Below, piece by piece: positions 3,551 through 25,707 of a stretch of DNA of 32,000 bases (position 1 is its first letter; each line of letters begins with the position of its first letter). The translations under genes were made by a program, and so were the position numbers. The notes under the pieces were generated by a model, which had not been told where the DNA came from, made no database searches, and saw only the letters and a program-made list of their open reading frames with translations. Origin of the DNA: Candidatus Electronema halotolerans (GTDB lineage Bacteria; Desulfobacterota; Desulfobulbia; Desulfobulbales; Desulfobulbaceae); the NCBI GenBank assembly GCA_942493095.1, contig OW818675.1, positions 450,001-482,000 on the forward strand. Direction: 5' to 3'.

Positions 3551-3689
3551 CATATTCGTGACAGCATAAAAATATCGCAACGGTGTGCAGCCGCAGAATG
3601 ACATTGCCCATTCCTGCGGATGACAGGCGCAATTGAGCCGGACAGATTCTCTGGCCGGCTATGACAGAACGTTCAAAGGGAGATGCAAG

Positions 3690-4919
3690 ATGAAAAAGCT
3701 GGTAATTCTTGGAGCAGGCTGTGCAGGAACAATGGTTGCAAACAACCTGCGCAAGAAGCTGTCCCGCGATGAGTGGTCGATTACAATCATTGATAAAGAT
3801 GACAGACATATTTATCAGCCCGGCCTGATCTTCATCCCTTTCGGCATGTACAAGCCTGAAGAGATCGTCCGTACCCGCAGCGAGTTTATCGGCAAGGGAA
3901 TCAACTTTGTTGTCGATGAGATTGTCGGGGTTGACACTGCCACCCAGACCGTGGAGACCACAGCGGGCAAATATGAATACGACAAGATCATCGTCTGCAC
4001 CGGCGTGAGTTTGGCCCCGGAAGAAATTCCGGGCATGATGGACGGCTGGCAGACCAAGGTCTTTGATTTTTACACCTTGGAAGGGGCGGTGAACCTGGAG
4101 AAGAAGCTGCGCTCTTTCAAAGAAGGAACGATGGTGCTGAATATTGCGGAGTTTCCCTACAAATGCCCGGTTGCGCCGCTGGAATTCGTCTATCTTGCTG
4201 ACTGGTATTTTGCCGAGCGCGGGGTTCGGGATAAAATCGACATCCATTTTGTCACCCCCATGACCGGAGCCTTTACCAAGCCCAAGGCCTCGGCCTACTT
4301 CACCAAGATGATGATCGATAAGAACATCAAGGTCACTGCGGATTTCATCCTTGCCGAGGTTGACTGCACCAATAACAAACTGATCTCCGCAGCCGGTGAT
4401 GAAATTGCGTGGGATTTGCTGGTTTCCATTCCACCCAATGTCGGAGCGCGCTATTTGGTCAATTCCAAGGTTGCTATGGATGAGATCGGTTACGTGAAAA
4501 CGAACAACCATACCTTGCAGGCGGAAGCGCACGAGAACATGTATGTGCTCGGTGACAACACCACGATCCCCACCTCCAAGGCTGGTTCAGTGGCCCATTT
4601 CTCCGCAGAAATCATGATAGAGAACTTCATGCGCGAGATCAACGGCGAGCCGGTCCGGCCTGACTACGACGGTCATTCCAACTGCTTCATCGAGACCGGT
4701 TATGGCAAGGCCTCTCTCATTGACTTCAACTACGAATACGAGCCGCTGCCCGGTAAATTCCCCCTGCCAGGACTCGGACCCTTTTCTCTTCTCGGCGACA
4801 CCAAGGCCAATCATTGGGGCAAGATGATGTTCAAATGGGTGTACTGGAACAAACTGCTGACCGGTGAGGAGCTGCCGCTTGAGGCCCAGATGTCTCTTGC
4901 GGGCAAGGTTCAGGAATAA
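3690..4919 (+). CDS. NAD(P)/FAD-dependent oxidoreductase, sulfide:quinone oxidoreductase-like
   Basis: Start chosen at the ATG preceded by AAAGGGAG (3675-3682); the track start at 3633 lacks an SD. N-terminal Rossmann motif KKLVILGAGCAGTMVAN. Two SQR-type Cys contexts are present (FPYKCPVAPLEF and HSNCFIETGYG). Followed by a DUF1641 gene, which is a common pairing. Confidence 0.75.
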   Translation: MKKLVILGAGCAGTMVANNLRKKLSRDEWSITIIDKDDRHIYQPGLIFIPFGMYKPEEIVRTRSEFIGKGINFVVDEIVGVDTATQTVETTAGKYEYDKIIVCTGVSLAPEEIPGMMDGWQTKVFDFYTLEGAVNLEKKLRSFKEGTMVLNIAEFPYKCPVAPLEFVYLADWYFAERGVRDKIDIHFVTPMTGAFTKPKASAYFTKMMIDKNIKVTADFILAEVDCTNNKLISAAGDEIAWDLLVSIPPNVGARYLVNSKVAMDEIGYVKTNNHTLQAEAHENMYVLGDNTTIPTSKAGSVAHFSAEIMIENFMREINGEPVRPDYDGHSNCFIETGYGKASLIDFNYEYEPLPGKFPLPGLGPFSLLGDTKANHWGKMMFKWVYWNKLLTGEELPLEAQMSLAGKVQE

Positions 4920-4930
4920 GGGAGAGCATC

Positions 4931-5689
4931 ATGACCAATGAAGAAAAGATTCTCGCCCGCCTCGATGAACTCACCGAGGAAGTGCGGGAAGCTAAACGTG
5001 CTGTCAGACCCTACGTGGAGCTGAAGCAGGAGTTGGAACCCCTGATCCACTCAATGGTTCATGAGGCCACAGCACGCCTGAGTGGTCTGGATAAAAATGT
5101 GGATTTGGAAGATGTCGGGGACATGATCGGCCAGTCCCTGGCATCCAGCGGCAACATTGCCGAAGCTCTCAAAACCCTGAACAGCATTATGGAGTTTAAA
5201 AGGGATTTTGAGCCGCACGGCAAAGACATGTTTCATGAGCTGGCCCTGCGCCTGCAAACCGCTTTCCAGGGCTTTGAGGGAGAAAACCTGCAGGAGCTGC
5301 TCAGGCAGTTCATCATCAATATGGGCAATCTTGCCGAAATGATGAAGCTGCTCGGCTCCTTTATGGACATGAAGCGCGATGTTGCCGAGTTGAGCGGGCC
5401 GGTCGTCAACGACATGATTGAGCGTCTGGACAGCCTCAAGAAACGCGGCCTGTTTGATGATTTTGAACGGATGATGGCAATTGGCGAGCGGGTCAGCACC
5501 AAGATGAAGGCAATTGACCTTGACAAGGCAAAGCCAATCACCGGCATCTTTGGCATGTTGTCCGCTTTGAAACGCAAGGAGGTTCAGGAGGGGCTTGGCG
5601 TGCTGATCGAGCTGTCAACTGTGGCCGCAGCTATGAAAGAGCCGACAGCAGAGCAATCTGGCCAAGCCTGCTGCGCCAAGACGGCCTGA
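4931..5689 (+). CDS. DUF1641 domain-containing protein (helical, internally repetitive)
   Basis: SD AAGGGAG (4918-4924) before the ATG. C-terminal block ITGIFGMLSALKRKEVQEGLGVLIELSTV matches the DUF1641 signature as I recall it. Located 11 nt downstream of the flavoprotein gene. Confidence 0.65.
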   Translation: MTNEEKILARLDELTEEVREAKRAVRPYVELKQELEPLIHSMVHEATARLSGLDKNVDLEDVGDMIGQSLASSGNIAEALKTLNSIMEFKRDFEPHGKDMFHELALRLQTAFQGFEGENLQELLRQFIINMGNLAEMMKLLGSFMDMKRDVAELSGPVVNDMIERLDSLKKRGLFDDFERMMAIGERVSTKMKAIDLDKAKPITGIFGMLSALKRKEVQEGLGVLIELSTVAAAMKEPTAEQSGQACCAKTA

Positions 5690-5705
5690 ATGCTGTTGTC
5701 TCTCC

Positions 5706-5733
5706 GGGACAGGGTTCTCCTGTCCCGTTGTTG
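5706..5733 (+). terminator. hairpin between convergent genes, possible intrinsic terminator
   Basis: Perfect 8-bp stem GGGACAGG / CCTGTCCC (5706-5713 and 5719-5726), 5-nt loop, followed by GTTGTTG. It sits between the DUF1641 stop (5689) and the nif-like stop (5737). Confidence 0.4.
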
Positions 5734-5736
5734 CTC

Positions 5737-7098
5737 TCACATATAGGAATAGCCGACTGGCGAGTCGTCCTGCTTCTTGGCGATCAGGGCATTGGTGACA
5801 CTGTCAAAGAGCTGCTGCGCCCCTTGGTAGCCGAGATGGAGGATGCGCTGGCCGCCGACCCGGTCATGAATCGGGAAGCCGACCCGGATCAGCGGGATGT
5901 CCAGCTTGCGGGCCAGCGGATAGCCCTTGGAATGGCCGATGATGATATCCGGCTTCAGGACTTCGGCCTGCTCGGCGATGTCAAAGAAGTCCGCGCCCTC
6001 ATGCACGTCCGGCTGTTCAGCAAGGATGCCGTCTGTCACCTCGGCAATGGCTCCGGCCAGCTTGCCCGACGTGCCCCCGGAAGCGCAGAGCACTGGCACG
6101 ATGCCGATCTCAGCCAAGAACGCAGTCAGCCCGACCACCAAATCCTCCTCGCCATAGATGATGGTCCGCTTGCCAAACACGTACTTGTGGCCATCCACAT
6201 AAGCATCCACCAGCCTGCCCCGTTCCTTCTGGTATTTTTCCGGCATTACCTGGCCGCTCAGGTCTGAGAGCAGGGCAAAGAAACGGTCAGTCTCCTCAAT
6301 GCCAATGGGCATGCCGAGCTGATGCCGCCGCACCTTGAACTTGTTGTCCAAGGTCAGCGCCCCGCTCAGGCCGCTGCTGATGGTGCGGCTGAACTCAATG
6401 GTCGCCTGACTGCGGCCCATTGCGCTGATCGCGGCCAAGGGCGTGCCGCCAGGGGCAATCTTCTCGTAGTCGAGCTGGGCCGGGCCGTCCATAGTCTCGG
6501 ACAAATCCGGCAGCATGGTGTAGGTCAGGCCAAATTCGGCCATGATCTCGTGCAGAAGGCGGCAGTCTGCTGAGGAGACAAAGCCGGGCAGCAGGTTGAC
6601 GGTCTCGGTGCGCGGGCCGCCGCCAGCCCGCTGCGCAATCACGGCCTGCACTGCTCCGTGAAAGCCCTCGATATGAGTGCCGGAGTAGCTCGGCGAGGCG
6701 ACGTGGACAAATTCCGGCAGCCCTTCTGATCCCTCGGTGTCCTTGGCATACTCATGGAGATAGCGGGCCACGTCATCGCCGATTGTCTCGGTCAGGCAGG
6801 TGGTGGCAATGCCGATCAGAGCGGGCCGGTACTTGGCCGCCACATTGGTCAGGCCCAGCTTGAGATTGGGGCCGCCGCCGTAGATGGCGTTCTTCTCGGA
6901 CAGTGACGACGAGGCAATGTCTATTGGCTCATTGTAATGGCTGATGATGTAGCGGCGCATGTAGGTGGCGCAGCCCTGCGAGCCGTGCAGGTACGGCACT
7001 GCGCCCTCAATGCCCTTGAAGGCCAGACATGCGCCCAGCGGGCGGCAGAGCTTGCAGGCATTGGTGGTTGAGATGTAGTTGGGATGCGGCTTGCTCAT
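5737..7098 (-). CDS. nitrogenase component 1-type oxidoreductase, NifK/NifN-like (orphan)
   Basis: Start set at the ATG at 7098, preceded by AAGGAG (complement of 7104-7109). Motifs: CRPLGA (Cys18), LHGSQGC (Cys43), ATTCLTETIGDD (Cys101). The Cys spacings of 25 and 58 aa equal those I recall for the NifK P-cluster ligands Cys70/95/153. The 453-aa length is NifN-like. Confidence 0.8.
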   Translation of the reverse strand: MSKPHPNYISTTNACKLCRPLGACLAFKGIEGAVPYLHGSQGCATYMRRYIISHYNEPIDIASSSLSEKNAIYGGGPNLKLGLTNVAAKYRPALIGIATTCLTETIGDDVARYLHEYAKDTEGSEGLPEFVHVASPSYSGTHIEGFHGAVQAVIAQRAGGGPRTETVNLLPGFVSSADCRLLHEIMAEFGLTYTMLPDLSETMDGPAQLDYEKIAPGGTPLAAISAMGRSQATIEFSRTISSGLSGALTLDNKFKVRRHQLGMPIGIEETDRFFALLSDLSGQVMPEKYQKERGRLVDAYVDGHKYVFGKRTIIYGEEDLVVGLTAFLAEIGIVPVLCASGGTSGKLAGAIAEVTDGILAEQPDVHEGADFFDIAEQAEVLKPDIIIGHSKGYPLARKLDIPLIRVGFPIHDRVGGQRILHLGYQGAQQLFDSVTNALIAKKQDDSPVGYSYM

Positions 7099-7134
7099 GA
7101 TCACTCCTTGGGGATAAGTTGACAAGGCTGCCGC

Positions 7135-7151
7135 TGCAAAGGCTGTGCCAC
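7135..7151 (-). promoter_or_regulatory. sigma54 (-24/-12) promoter of the NifK/NifN-like gene
   Basis: The reverse complement of 7135-7151 reads GTGGCACAGCCTTTGCA, i.e. TGGCAC-N5-TTGCA with canonical GG/GC spacing. The -12 element is about 38 nt upstream of the ATG at 7098. Confidence 0.6.
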
Positions 7152-7181: not shown

Positions 7182-7255
7182 TCTGCTGCCGGACAGGAAA
7201 GCCTCAGACAACATTCCTGTTGCTGGTGTGACAAAATTGCAGGCAGCGACGTTTT

Positions 7256-7271
7256 TGTCGGCAATGTGACA
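7256..7271. promoter_or_regulatory. TGT-N10-ACA element (NifA-type UAS consensus)
   Basis: TGTCGGCAATGTGACA at 7256-7271, about 105 bp upstream of the -24 element. The motif carries only 6 informative bases, so a chance occurrence in this region is quite possible. Confidence 0.2.
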
Positions 7272-7346
7272 TGCTCCACTCATGGCGCCAGCTTGACGCG
7301 CCCTCAGCATGCTCACCGTTTGACCGACAGCATGGTGTCGTGTCTG

Positions 7347-7438
7347 TCGAATGCATGCATTCGTGCTGATCAAATGCATGGTTTCGATCCAATCAAATGC
7401 ATGCATTCGTGCCGATCAAATGCGTGGTTTCGTGTGAA
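7347..7438. repeat. four phased 23-bp repeats (two 46-bp tandem units) with core TCRAATGCRTG
   Basis: Units start at 7347, 7370, 7393 and 7416: tcgaatgcatgcattcgtgctga / tcaaatgcatggtttcgatccaa / tcaaatgcatgcattcgtgccga / tcaaatgcgtggtttcgtgtgaa. The 46-bp units match at 37 of the first 40 positions. 7348-7363 (cgaatgcatgcattcg) is a perfect 16-bp palindrome. Confidence 0.85.
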
Positions 7439-7683
7439 AGGGAACAGGCTCAGATTGCGGATAAAAAAGGTGTTGCGGAAGAGATTATACTCAGGGGATT
7501 GCATCTGTGTCACCGTCACAATGACACTCCGGGGCGCCCTGGGTTATTATAACCAGCATCGCCTGTTGAGCATCCTGCCGCGCCCGTCTGCACCCAGCTT
7601 GAGCCGTCAAACTGCATCACGCTGGAATGCTGTCCAACGCCACGGTGTCAAGGTGTAAACGCGGGCACCTTACCGCAAAATTC

Positions 7684-7712: not shown

Positions 7713-7823
7713 CCTCACAGAGTCCGCGCAGCCGCAATCACCTGCTTTTCGATGCCAAACCGCCGCTGATGTGCTATGCTGCGTCGAAAGCAGTTTCCAA
7801 TCTATATTTATCGATACAAGATC

Positions 7824-9020
7824 ATGAACGTGAACAAGATTGTGCTCGCCTATTCCGGCGGGCTGGACACCTCGGTCATTCTCAAATGGCTGGCCGAGGA
7901 ATATCAGTGCCCGGTGATTGCCTATGCGGCAGATGTGGGCCAGCAGGAGGACTGGGAGGCGGTGCGGAAAAAGGGCATGGCCACGGGTGCGGAAAAGGTC
8001 ATTGTTTCTGACCTGCGCGAGGAGTTTGTCCGCGACTACATCTTCCCAGCTTTCCGGGCCAATGCCATTTATGAAGGCTCGTATCTGCTTGGCACCTCGC
8101 TGGCCCGCCCGGTGATTGCCAAGGAGCAGGTGCGCATTGCCGAGCAGGAGGGCGCGGATGCGGTCAGCCACGGCGCGACTGGCAAGGGCAATGATCAGGT
8201 GCGCTTTGAGCTGACCTATCTGGCCCTCAATCCCAAGCTGCACATCATTGCTCCGTGGCGGATCTGGACGCTCAACTCCCGCACCAAGCTGATGGAGTTT
8301 GCCGAGCAGCACGGCATTCCAGTGCCGACCACCAAGAAAAGCCCGTACAGCTCAGACGAGAACCTGCTCCACATCAGCTTTGAGGGCGGTATTCTTGAAG
8401 ACCCGTGGAACGAGCCAGAAGAGTCGATGTTCAAGCTCTCGGTCTCGCCGGAAAAGGCACCTGATCAGCCGACCTATCTGGAGCTGGATTTTGAGCAGGG
8501 CAGTCCAGTGGCCATTGACGGCGAACGGCTCAGTCCGGTTGCGCTGTTGAGTAAACTGAACACGCTGGGCGGCGCGAATGGCATTGGCCGCTTGGACATG
8601 GTCGAGAACCGCTTTGTCGGCATCAAGTCACGCGGGGTCTATGAGACACCGGGCGGCACCATCCTCCGGGCCGCGCACCGCGATTTGGAAACCATCACCC
8701 TTGACCGCGAGGTGCTGCGCCTGCGCGACAGCCTTGTGCCGGAATATTCGCGCCTGATCTACAACGGCTTCTGGTTCTCGCCGGAGCGGGTGCTGCTCCA
8801 GCAGCTCATGGACGAGAGCCAGCTACCGGTCAACGGCACGGTCCGGCTCAAGCTCTACAAGGGCAATTGCACGCCGGTCGGGCGCAAGTCGGCCAACTCG
8901 CTCTATTCCGAAGCCCATGCCACCTTTGAGGCGGATCAGGTCTATAATCAGGCGGATGCGGGCGGCTTCATCCGCCTCAACGCCATGCGCTTGCAAATCC
9001 AAGCCCTGAACCGGAAATAA
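7824..9020 (+). CDS. argG: argininosuccinate synthase
   Basis: Start set at [18 protein letters not shown] (canonical N-terminus with the PP-loop SGGLDTS). Also [14 protein letters not shown] and [19 protein letters not shown]. Confidence 0.95.
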
Positions 9021-22704: not shown

Positions 22705-25700
22705 TCAGCAGCCCCCTTTGTTCAGCTTGGCCTGCACAATTTCCAGCACCTTTTCCATCCGCATCCCCCGTGAGCCTTTGAGCAGGAGCCAGTCGCCTGC
22801 CGTGATATGGTTCATGTCGATTTCATTGAGCAGCCAAGCCGCCATTGCCGCAGTGTCAGGAAACACCTGCGTCATCTTGTCCGGCATTCCGCCTTGTCTT
22901 GCCCCTTCAGCAACTTGTTCCGCAAACGTGCCGGTTGCTGCTGCGTGCGCATAACCGAGCTGCGCGGCCTCCCGGCCAAGCTGCTCATGCGCTGCGGCTG
23001 AGGACTCACCCAATTCCAGCATGTCGCCGAGCAGGGCGATATGTTTGCAATTCTTGCCAAAGCCGCGCAAGGTCTTCAGAGCCGCCAACATGGAGCCGGG
23101 ATTGGCATTGTAGCAGTCGTTCAAGACATTGATGCCGTTGGGCAGGGTGACAAGCTGCATCCGCTTGTCCGCACTGCTCTGATAGGCCCGCAGCGTGTCA
23201 GCAATGGTTTCCGGTGCAATGCCAGCCGCATGAGCAATTGCCGCAGCCGCGCAGCAGTTGCTGACGCTGTGCAGGCCGGGCAAAGCAATCTCAACTTCTT
23301 GCTCCCAATCACATATACACAAGTTGAAGCGCATTCCTTTCTCACCGAGATCAGCAATGTTGACCGCGCTGACTTCCGGCGTGCGGCTGAGTCCTGCCGA
23401 CGTGACAGCAAAGCCGATCACCCGCGCTGAATTGGTCGGCAGCTTGCGCACCTGCGGATCATCCAAATTGACCACGCTGACCGTGTCCGCCCGCAGCCCG
23501 GCGAACAGCTCGCCCTTGGCCTTGGCAACGCCCTCAATGCTGCCCAAGCCCTCCAGATGCGCGGCCTGAACGTTGGTGATGCAGGCAATGTCAGGATCAG
23601 CCGCTGCACCAAGGCGGGCAATCTCGCCAGGATGATTCATGCCCATTTCCAGCACTGCCGCCTTGTGCCCGGCAGCCATTGGCAGCAAAGAGAGCGGCAT
23701 TCCAACCAGATTGTTGAAATTGCCCTGCGTCTTCAGAACCGGGTTGATGCCGGTGTTCGCCTCAGCAAAATGGCGGCTGAAAAGTGCCGCAACCAGTTCC
23801 TTGACCGTGGTCTTGCCGCTGCTGCCAGTGACGGCAGCCACGGTCAGCCTCTTGCCCAGCAGCCTGCGGCGATAGGCGGCCAAATCAAGCAGAGCTTGCA
23901 GCGTGTCAGTCACCCGGATAAGCACGGTTCCGGCAGACACCTGCATCTCACGCTGGACAATGACTGCTGCTGCTCCGGCCTCAATTGCCGTCTGCACATA
24001 GTCATGGCCGTCAAATTTCTCTCCGGCCAAAGCAACGAAAATGTCACCACGCTGCAACGTGCGCGTATCTATGGAAACGTTGCCAAACGTATGGGTAGGG
24101 GCAGGCCCCCGTGTCTGCCCTCCTGTTGCCCGAACCAAATGCCCAAAATTCCAGCGCAGCAAACCATTGACCGCCTCAATCCGATCATCAAAAAAATGCC
24201 GCTCCGCACCGATAATCTGATAATCCTCATGCCCTTTGCCTGCAATGAGAACGATGTCCTCCGGCCCGGCCAAGGCGCAGGCCGTATGAATGGCGGTTCT
24301 CCGGTCAGATATGCAGACAAAGCCTTTGGCAGATGCCAGCTCATCCGGCGTAAGCTCGGCCAGCCCAGCGGCCCGACATCCTGCCGCAACCTCGCTGATA
24401 ATGGTCTCCGGGTCTTCTGAGCGGGGATTGTCCGAAGTGACAAGGCTGAGGTCAGCAAATTTCGCCGCAACTGCCGCCATCTGAGGCCGCTTGCCCTTGT
24501 CGCGGTCGCCGCCGCAGCCAAAGACGCAGAACAGCCGCCCTTTAGTCAGCGGACGCAGGGTTTGCAGCACATTCTCAAGAGCATCCGGGCTGTGGGCGTA
24601 ATCGACCAGCACACAAGGCTGTTCCTCTTCGGCCAAGCCGGGTAGCTGCACCCGTTCCAAGCGGCCTGGCACCTGCCTGTCCTGCGCCAAACCAGAGACA
24701 ATCTGATCCGGCGGCAAGCTCAAGGCCAATCCTGCTCCGGCGGCGGCAAGGATGTTGAGGACGTTGTGCCGCCCGGTCAGGCAGGAACGGAATGGCAATG
24801 ATTTTCCGTTGACGCTGAGATTGCAGGAGAAGCCTCGGATGTCCTGCTGCAAATCTGTCGCAGAGACACGGTTTGCCTTTGCCGTGTCAAGACCGCAGGT
24901 GAATTGGGCCAGATCAGGCCGTTCCGCCGCCAGCTCGTGAAAAAGTTGACGGCCCCAGTCCTGCTCCGTGACGATCACCGCCTTGCCGTTCTCCTTGAGA
25001 TAGCGAGTGAAAAGCAGCTTTTTGGCCGCGAAATACGCCGCCATCGTGCCGTGAAAATCGAGATGGTCGCGGGTCAAATTGGTGAACAGGCCGACATCAA
25101 AGCGCAGCCCGGCCAATCGCCTTTGCTCCAAAGCATGAGAGGAAGTCTCCATTACCACGTGGGTCACGCCTGCATCAGCCATTACCCGCAGCATTTTTTG
25201 GAGCTGCACCGGCCCCGGCGTGGTCAGCGGCGCCTTCTCGGCAATCACCCTGCCAGCGCGATCTGTCCAGCGGTAGTTCACTGTGCCGATCACTCCGACC
25301 TGACAGCCGCTGGCAGCCAGCATCTGCTCGATCAGCCACGAAATCGTGGTCTTGCCATTAGTGCCGGTCAGGCCGATCAAGTTCATGTTTTGGGTTGGGA
25401 AGTCATGCAGAGCCGCAGCCAGCCAGCCCAAGGCGGCATGACTGTCCTTGACCTGGACCACTGCTGTGCCTTCCAGCGGGCCGGGATCATTTTCAACCAC
25501 GACGCAGGAGCAGTCTTGCTCCACAACTTGGCGGACAAAATCATGGCCGTCCGCCTTGCTGCCCTTGACCGCAACAAAGATGCTCTCCGGCCCAGCCTCA
25601 CGGGAGTCGCAGGTGATATGGCAGATTGGGCCTTCTGTTGCTCCATGCAGCACCTGCGCTGCCAGCTCTTCCGGCAGAGCGCGGAGCAGTTGATGCAATT

Positions 25701-25707
25701 CAATCAT
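22705..25707 (-). CDS. murE-murF: fused MurE (UDP-MurNAc-L-Ala-D-Glu:meso-DAP ligase) - MurF (D-Ala-D-Ala adding enzyme)
   Basis: Single 1000-aa ORF. The N-terminal half has GLTGTNGKTT, DYAHSPDAL, GCGGDRDKGKRP, DNPRSEDP (DAP-specific DNPR) and AGKGHE. From about aa 515 (near nt 24160) the MurF part begins: SIDTRTLQRGDIFVAL, VTGSSGKTTVKE, NDCYNANPGSM and the C-terminal LLKGSRGMRME. Confidence 0.9.
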   Translation of the reverse strand: MIELHQLLRALPEELAAQVLHGATEGPICHITCDSREAGPESIFVAVKGSKADGHDFVRQVVEQDCSCVVVENDPGPLEGTAVVQVKDSHAALGWLAAALHDFPTQNMNLIGLTGTNGKTTISWLIEQMLAASGCQVGVIGTVNYRWTDRAGRVIAEKAPLTTPGPVQLQKMLRVMADAGVTHVVMETSSHALEQRRLAGLRFDVGLFTNLTRDHLDFHGTMAAYFAAKKLLFTRYLKENGKAVIVTEQDWGRQLFHELAAERPDLAQFTCGLDTAKANRVSATDLQQDIRGFSCNLSVNGKSLPFRSCLTGRHNVLNILAAAGAGLALSLPPDQIVSGLAQDRQVPGRLERVQLPGLAEEEQPCVLVDYAHSPDALENVLQTLRPLTKGRLFCVFGCGGDRDKGKRPQMAAVAAKFADLSLVTSDNPRSEDPETIISEVAAGCRAAGLAELTPDELASAKGFVCISDRRTAIHTACALAGPEDIVLIAGKGHEDYQIIGAERHFFDDRIEAVNGLLRWNFGHLVRATGGQTRGPAPTHTFGNVSIDTRTLQRGDIFVALAGEKFDGHDYVQTAIEAGAAAVIVQREMQVSAGTVLIRVTDTLQALLDLAAYRRRLLGKRLTVAAVTGSSGKTTVKELVAALFSRHFAEANTGINPVLKTQGNFNNLVGMPLSLLPMAAGHKAAVLEMGMNHPGEIARLGAAADPDIACITNVQAAHLEGLGSIEGVAKAKGELFAGLRADTVSVVNLDDPQVRKLPTNSARVIGFAVTSAGLSRTPEVSAVNIADLGEKGMRFNLCICDWEQEVEIALPGLHSVSNCCAAAAIAHAAGIAPETIADTLRAYQSSADKRMQLVTLPNGINVLNDCYNANPGSMLAALKTLRGFGKNCKHIALLGDMLELGESSAAAHEQLGREAAQLGYAHAAATGTFAEQVAEGARQGGMPDKMTQVFPDTAAMAAWLLNEIDMNHITAGDWLLLKGSRGMRMEKVLEIVQAKLNKGGC

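Follow-up and report, generated by a model that had tools for sequence, protein, structure and literature searches.

The solitary nitrogenase-like gene in a 32,000-nucleotide stretch of the Candidatus Electronema halotolerans genome (hereafter the window) is, with a probability of roughly 0.88, a relocated and functional nifN, encoding a subunit of the NifEN scaffold whose predicted function depends on pairing with NifE. Its orthologues lie between nifE and nifB in related genomes, both nifE and nifB are present in the same genome, promoter elements are shared between the dispersed genes, and the coding sequence is under purifying selection. The value of this assignment is mainly corrective, as the cable-bacterial gene annotated simply as ‘Nitrogenase’ or ‘nitrogenase component 1’ would be nifN. 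With it, and with the solitary nifE and nifB, nifHDKENB, the minimum of six genes on which predictions of diazotrophy rely, would be complete. The completed set strengthens the genomic case for the predicted nitrogen fixation by cable bacteria.

The gene and its surroundings

The minus-strand reading frame spans 5737..7125 when counted from its first TTG (462 aa). Its start codon is likely the ATG at position 7098, which is preceded by an AAGGAG ribosome-binding site and yields a protein of 453 residues (Table 1); a (C)AAGGAGC motif is found 5′ of nifN in all cable-bacterial loci. The 453-aa frame is real and intact, and its orientation, convergent with the DUF1641 gene and divergent from argG, is as the initial annotation had described it. 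A GC-rich hairpin begins 10 nt past the nifN stop codon and carries a T-run on the plus strand only. It likely acts as a transcription stop common to the two convergent genes. The nifN product is identical to the database entry ‘Nitrogenase [Candidatus Electronema halotolerans]’, and relatives with 74–97% identity occur throughout the Desulfobulbales, several of which have been named NifN by JGI.

Table 1. Position of nifN, its neighbors, and associated elements in the window.
Feature	Position	Strand	Basis and remarks
DUF1641 gene	4931-5689	+	Convergent with nifN
GC-rich hairpin, 10-bp stem	5705..5727	.	In the gap separating the stop codons of nifN and the convergent DUF1641 gene; terminator scan and sequence
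nifN CDS	5737..7098	-	453 aa plus stop; ORF, PF00148, orthologue synteny, tree, dN/dS
Ribosome-binding site AAGGAG	7104..7109	-	5 nt 5′ of the ATG; read from sequence
Sigma-54 (-24/-12) promoter TGGCACAGCCTTTGCA	7135..7150	-	Ends 36 nt 5′ of the nifN ATG
Palindrome GACAAAA-N15-TTTTGT(C)	7230..7259	.	About 80-110 bp upstream of the sigma-54 promoter
argG	7776-9020	+	Divergent from nifN

Beyond nifN, Pfam scans of the large ORFs show the window to be occupied by housekeeping genes. These comprise DUF2339 and DUF3999 genes, purine-nucleoside phosphorylase, argG, argH, aspS, a P-type ATPase, a type III sulfide:quinone reductase with its DUF1641 partner, cell-envelope genes, cobU, and clpA/B-like and holA-like genes. 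The scans revealed no homologue of NifH, NifD/E, NifB, or NifV in the 32 kb. They likewise gave no sign in the window of a nitrogenase-like (Nfl) context, such as nflH or a pathway-specific partner. A tblastn search of the window with NifH/D/K/E/B/V queries returned the nifN gene itself as the sole match. The initial annotation was therefore correct in stating that NifH-, NifD/E-, and NifB-like genes are absent from the 32 kb, since Pfam scans and tblastn agree in detecting no other nif gene there.

Family scores, tree position, and cysteine ligands

The nitrogenase component 1 family PF00148 matches the nifN product end to end (E = 4e-117, profile positions 1–398 of 399). Among the NCBIfam profiles, the nifN, nifK, and NifEN-fusion models all match at E < 1e-84. 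The target reaches 285.8 bits with the nifN model TIGR01285 (cut-off 326.8), 306 bits with the nifK model TIGR01286 (cut-off 427.3), and 304.9 bits with the NifEN-fusion model, in the latter case on the NifN half. The NifD/E models score far lower than those for NifN/K. The same holds for the models of CfbD (31.8 bits), BchB (67.8), and BchN (23.4), compared with about 290–306 bits for NifN/K. Of the solved structures, short NifK proteins score best (1mio_B, E = 6.6e-85). Azotobacter vinelandii NifN (3PDI chain B) aligns with residues 13–447 at E = 1.4e-58, and chain C of 9d9u/9fmg, entries titled only ‘Nitrogenase’, is matched weakly (E = 3.5e-6).

A second NifK, that is, a catalytic β-subunit paralogue pairing with NifD, might be read from these top NCBIfam and PDB scores, the more so as all P-cluster ligands are present and the short NifK of the Clostridium pasteurianum type (1MIO chain B) resembles the target in its length and its lack of an N-terminal extension. 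However, the 306 bits remain below the NifK cut-off of 427, which a genuine short NifK of the same phylum, encoded in the canonical nif cluster of Desulfosarcina, passes with 442. The NifN of that cluster instead reproduces the profile of the target, with 284.7 bits for the nifN model, likewise below the cut-off, and 300.4 bits for the nifK model. Because this operonic NifN scores alike, the sub-threshold nifN score is attributed to a bias of the model toward proteobacterial NifN. For the subtype to which both proteins belong, the nifN cut-off thus has no discriminating power. On these scores, the NCBIfam model appears to be tuned to the Azotobacter type and to under-score the three-cysteine type described below. 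If three-cysteine NifN of anaerobes is under-called in this way, a ‘nifN-less’ verdict on Desulfobacterota or comparable groups needs care.

The position of the target was determined in a distance-based neighbor-joining tree with 200 bootstraps, rooted on NifD/NifE. The sample combined NifK and NifN labelled by gene context, natural NifN-NifB and NifE-NifN fusions, and diverse representatives at 50% identity. One locus (L073) was left out, as its NifN carried a wrong NifK label because the upstream nifE ORF had been called too long at its N-terminus. In every one of the 200 bootstraps, the target joined context-defined NifN while all context-defined NifK remained outside. It clustered with the NifN-NifB fusions in 179 of them, and with NifN as a whole, Azotobacter type included, in 141. 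It is 54–68% identical to NifN and 33–35% identical to NifK of the same gene clusters. The phylogenetic placement, which the initial annotation had suggested as a check, thus sets the protein inside bona fide NifN. Moreover, its orthologues always follow nifE and never stand beside nifD. Score, tree, and gene order together largely refute a second NifK and leave that reading with hardly any probability.

The relocated-nifN assignment is compatible with the cysteine pattern. Cys18, Cys43, and Cys101 each fall in the alignment column of one of the three NifK P-cluster cysteines (1mio_B, 9p1x_B, 9hbn_B), so that their location at P-cluster positions, as claimed from the spacing, is borne out by alignment to solved structures. 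At the fourth NifK P-cluster ligand position, which we take to be β-Ser188 (A. vinelandii numbering), the target has a serine. Cys43, in the motif HGSQGC, corresponds to the single cysteine conserved in all NifN and NifK and is equivalent to Cys44 of A. vinelandii NifN. All three cysteines are found in 53 of 54 NifN from a nifE-nifN-nifB context, in 15/15 NifK, and in 14 of the 15 orphan copies. Consequently, the triad is no NifK-like oddity, as had been supposed, but is normal for anaerobe-type NifN, and it cannot tell NifK from NifN because anaerobe-type NifN bears the same set.

Among diverse representatives, the NifN-like group nearest to the target is almost uniformly of the C-C-C type, including NifN-NifB fusions of about 900–1076 aa. 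Most C-C-C representatives have serine at the putative β-Ser188 position, while the fusions have glycine. Distant NifN of the proteobacterial or Azotobacter type, including a 920-aa NifE-NifN fusion, shows the pattern S-C-G/A together with aspartate at the putative β-Ser188 position. The earlier statement that NifN keeps only one cluster cysteine therefore holds for this latter type and fails for the anaerobe type.

In its overall features, the target resembles the anaerobe-type NifN of nifENB operons and NifN-NifB fusions, with about 450 aa, the C-C-C(+Ser) ligand set, and membership in the same clade. Identity amounts to 54–86% with the operonic proteins and to 38–43% with the NifN portion of the fusions. 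The sole difference lies in where the target gene is located, as it is detached and has acquired a sigma-54 promoter and an upstream site of its own. Compared with Azotobacter-type NifN, identity falls to about 31%, serine and glycine/alanine replace the other two cysteines, and aspartate stands where the target has serine. A. vinelandii NifN (3PDI chain B; cryo-EM 9IAN and others) is nevertheless a full-length homologue, for which a like role in a NifE2N2 complex is expected, and it shares with the target the cysteine that ligates its interface [4Fe-4S] cluster (Cys43 in the target).

Gene order in relatives, partner genes, and constraint

Eighty related genome loci were gathered, their ORFs called and clustered, and the gene orders compared. 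In 57–60 of these 80, the orthologue lies between genes for a NifE of about 452 aa and a product of about 425 aa, which is identified as NifB by its radical-SAM domain, CNIQCNYC motif, and NifX-like C-terminus. Of the roughly 70 other loci of Desulfobulbales and Desulfobacterales, most carry this nifE-nifN-nifB operon. In Desulfosarcina and two other lineages (L076–78, L081–82), the orthologue is part of a complete cluster with the order nifH-PII-PII-nifD-nifK-nifE-[orthologue]-nifB (nifHI1I2DKENB). In Desulfosarcina and three other loci, a sigma-54 activator gene stands ahead of nifH, and nifD, nifK, and nifE encode 558, 460, and 450 aa, respectively. Genes assigned by eye to molybdate transport and a probable homocitrate synthase often follow nifB in clusters of this type.

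Detachment of nifN is confined to cable bacteria of the genera Electronema and Electrothrix (the window and loci L001–L005, L007–L012, and L026). A nifB gene lies a few kb from the detached nifN in L003, L007, L009, and L012. By tblastn, neither nifE nor a nifE remnant was found near the detached nifN of cable bacteria, and there is no nifD or nifH within ±10 kb of nifN in the other cable bacteria or in the 32-kb window. The genes flanking detached nifN vary between species, and what is conserved is a module of promoter plus gene.

Electronema sp. TJ carries nifE-nifN-nifB contiguously on an 8.3-kb contig, with an N-run inside nifE. The window nifN product is 86% identical to this nifENB-embedded copy, which in turn is 96% identical to the orphan NifN of Electronema sp. 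JM. The history of the break-up is ambiguous, because Electronema sp. TJ keeps nifENB contiguous and yet encodes a NifN so close to the JM orphan. Either disruption of the operon would be recurrent or reversible by recombination, or the TJ contig would be chimeric.

The partner genes were located in the same genome. NifE of Ca. E. halotolerans is P0124, a protein of 455 aa encoded on the same 3,199,950-bp contig as nifN. It is 93% identical over 287 aligned residues to NifE of Electronema sp. TJ, which served as the search query, and passes the NifE model TIGR01283 (619 vs. a cut-off of 505). The nifE locus (L083/L084) is solitary: a hybrid-cluster-protein gene lies divergently upstream and comEC convergently downstream, and no nifN adjoins nifE in this locus. 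NifB, found within a 90%-identity cluster, is P0527 (CAK8722730.1) and passes the NifB model TIGR01290 (406 vs. 344); its gene is neither in the 32-kb window nor on the 7-kb nifE contig. The protein accessions for nifN, nifE, and nifB (CAK8712815, CAK8718207, CAK8722730) give no measure of the spacing between the genes, since they are interleaved with those of jointly submitted genomes. NifDHK is reported for all cable bacteria by the genome paper, whose KEGG table has entries for K02586, K02588, and K02591 in 10/10 genomes. According to that table, nifHDK are thus also present in Ca. E. halotolerans. The window gene appears to be the only nifN of the genome, although a second copy could conceivably be hidden within a 90%-identity cluster.

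In essence, these findings correspond to what the initial annotation had set against its own proposals as a simply relocated nifN: the gene falls into the NifN clade, and a lone nifE, nifB, and, according to the genome paper, nifHDK are encoded elsewhere. Of its first proposal, a stray cofactor-maturation paralogue of the nif regulon, the link to the maturation machinery and, given the promoters, to the nif regulon stands; the notion of an extra paralogue does not, as the gene is apparently the sole nifN.

Its second proposal, a homomeric protein from an uncharacterised clade of nitrogenase-like enzymes, disagrees with the position in the NifN clade, the nifE-nifN-nifB arrangement of the orthologues, and the presence of nifE in the genome. 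A variant can be framed in which NifN itself has been freed from NifE and forms a homodimer or homotetramer served by a distally encoded NifH-like reductase, identical subunits bridging a P-cluster-like cluster. In almost all cable bacteria, nifN is indeed monocistronic with its own promoter, the full NifK-type ligand set of three cysteines and a serine is present, and a tight NifN dimer forms the core of the solved NifEN structure. Yet the orphan proteins have not diverged from operonic NifN, as the identities to and from the TJ copy illustrate, and the dN/dS values given below show no rate acceleration. The genome still encodes a NifE whose ligands are intact and whose gene bears the corresponding promoter elements, the cysteine triad is older than the orphan state, and the similarity to CfbD, BchB/N, and Mar proteins is far weaker than that to NifN/K. 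We therefore regard a freed, homomeric NifN as very improbable.

Selection on the relocated nifN was assessed by dN/dS according to Nei–Gojobori. The median is 0.057 among orphan nifN copies and 0.122 among operonic ones, and values for the window gene against other Electronema range from 0.09 to 0.15. At 0.06–0.15, the detached gene is at least as constrained as its operonic counterpart, which argues against decay and against any change of rate after detachment. These values bear on a further explanation, namely that cable bacteria are losing their nif system and that the gene is what is left of it, decaying and silent or functionless despite its open reading frame. Such a history would suit the fragmented operon, the non-syntenic flanks between species, and the fact that cable-bacterial diazotrophy is a genomic prediction only. 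It is at odds with an ORF that is intact in every cable-bacterial genome examined, with low dN/dS across two genera, with conservation of both the ribosome-binding site and a sigma-54 promoter at fixed distance, and with intact NifE and NifB that score above curated cut-offs. Only a slight chance is left to it.

Promoter elements and the predicted NifEN scaffold

The promoter elements suggest how a relocated nifN may remain tied to its former neighbors. Within the 32 kb, only the sigma-54 element in front of nifN fits TGGCAC-N5-TTGCW without a mismatch. The solitary nifE has a corresponding element, TGGCACAGCTCTTGCT (L083 3047–3062), at a similar distance from its start. Every cable-bacterial orphan nifN is preceded by such an element 36–43 nt 5′ of the gene, whereas relatives outside the cable bacteria have it in front of nifE or nifH and not of nifN.

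Further upstream, the palindrome listed in Table 1 may serve as the binding site of a sigma-54 activator resembling NifA. Its pattern has three matches in the window compared with 0.00 expected from 100 shuffles, two of the three being this one site read on both strands. The palindrome occurs in 24 of 84 loci, mainly about 200–250 bp upstream of nifE in nifENB operons. Further copies precede detached nifB genes (L009, L012) and the nifE gene of Ca. E. halotolerans (L083 2917–2945). Genes for sigma-54 activators of about 540 aa lie alongside nif clusters in 16 loci. Another sequence, TGT-N10-ACA at 7256–7271, fits the classical NifA site pattern and was set aside, as that pattern is too loose.

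On the simplest reading of these elements, nifN belongs to a dispersed yet co-regulated nif regulon. In the ancestors of cable bacteria, nifN would have been the middle gene of a nifE-nifN-nifB operon, which genome rearrangement then scattered, so that each of the three genes would now have its own sigma-54 promoter and its own copy of the upstream activator site. With separate promoters and activator sites, nifE, nifN, and nifB could therefore still be induced jointly when nitrogen is limiting. Cable bacteria would thus provide a clean example of operon splitting in which the fragments kept or gained the same sigma-54 promoter and enhancer site.

At the protein level, NifN would pair with the NifE encoded elsewhere on the chromosome to form a NifE2N2 scaffold. 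On this scaffold, NifH would assist in adding molybdenum and homocitrate to the [8Fe-9S-C] precursor made by NifB, which would thereby become the FeMo-cofactor for NifDK.

The ligand sets of the two predicted partners bear on the cluster at their interface. In the A. vinelandii NifEN structure, a [4Fe-4S] cluster is located between NifE and NifN. The residues equivalent to C25, C37, C62, C124, and C250 of A. vinelandii NifE are conserved in P0124, the NifE of Ca. E. halotolerans. With three cysteines and a serine contributed by NifN and three cysteines by NifE, NifEN of the widespread anaerobe-type lineage therefore has a full six-cysteine P-cluster ligand set. We tentatively suggest, as a possibility we hold to be rather doubtful, that NifEN of this lineage harbors an [8Fe-7S]-type cluster in place of [4Fe-4S], and that the separate nifE, nifN, and nifB promoters permit subunit ratios other than those of an operon. 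Such a cluster, if real, would bring the maturase nearer to the catalytic nitrogenase. A partial search of the literature yielded cysteine counts for nitrogenase-like clades and none for canonical anaerobe-type NifN.

Recognition of nifN and arrangement of nifENB in Electronema

The curated NCBIfam model for nifN (TIGR01285) was run on window 5737-7098 and, as a control, on the NifN of a canonical Desulfosarcina nif cluster (L077, 9968-11341). A genuine operonic Desulfobacterota NifN falls ~40 bits under the cut-off, and Desulfobacterota nifN genes under this cut-off are labelled generically as "nitrogenase component 1". This shortfall could cause genomes to be mis-scored as lacking nifN.

Within Electronema, sp. 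TJ carries nifE, nifN and nifB contiguously (L006, 264-4307), nifE and nifN being separated by 15 nt, while the nifN of sp. JM is an orphan, preceded by a sigma-54 promoter and an upstream site of its own (L007, 9700-11359). The two NifN proteins are 96% identical. The break-up of nifENB may be polymorphic inside this one genus; alternatively, the TJ contig, which has a run of N within nifE, is chimeric.

In Ca. E. halotolerans, the solitary nifE (L083) is divergent from the adjoining genes for a hybrid-cluster protein and a ferredoxin-domain protein, to which it has no obvious functional tie. This context shows nifE relocated amid unrelated redox genes. Among Desulfobulbales loci containing both nifHDK and nifENB, a shorter NifB-family gene of 363-391 aa lies directly downstream of nifK (L015, L063, L064, L069, L073) and falls into the same BLAST cluster as NifB. 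Together with the nifB of nifENB, it gives two NifB-like genes per genome.

Features in the window and beside the solitary nifE
Feature	Locus	Position	Strand	Details
Type III sulfide:quinone reductase	window	3633-4919	+	NCBIfam NF049943 "SQR_III_seleno", 629 bits (cut-off 525)
DUF1641 protein	window	4931-5689	+	C-terminal end QACCAKTA
Tandem array	window	7321-7435		four to five 23-bp units, nifN-argG intergenic region
Perfect AATGCATGCATT palindromes (two)	window	7350-7361, 7396-7407		inside tandem array
Sigma-70-like promoter	window	7513-7484	-	strong match, 11/12 positions
Sigma-70-like promoter	window	7521-7550	+	strong match, 10/12 positions
Mur-ligase ORF	window	22705-25707	-	1000 aa; two matches to each of Mur_ligase_M, Mur_ligase_C and Mur_ligase
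Hybrid-cluster protein (Prismane, 641 aa) and 4Fe-4S ferredoxin-domain genes	L083	366-2764		upstream of nifE

Intergenic region between nifN and argG

The tandem array lies upstream of both genes, 220-340 bp from nifN and ~340-455 bp from argG, and looks like a repeated, putative transcription-factor site. Apart from same-strain copies, its palindrome has no further copy in the window or the other fetched loci. Both sigma-70-like matches stand back to back around a small hairpin (7528-7543). They possibly belong to argG, and these predicted promoters may supplement the sigma-54 promoter of nifN or compete with it.

Other genes in the window

The sulfide:quinone reductase and DUF1641 genes form a pair adjoining nifN, which bears on sulfide oxidation in cable bacteria rather than on nifN. 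In same-strain read-level (Logan) assemblies, the ORF spanning ~4824 is called as two genes, one encoding 378 aa and the other 31 aa, whereas the window version has no in-frame stop; this difference points to a 1-nt indel between the assemblies near ~4824. Further, the Mur-ligase ORF comprises two complete domain sets and appears to be two Mur ligases fused into one polypeptide, plausibly MurE-MurF.
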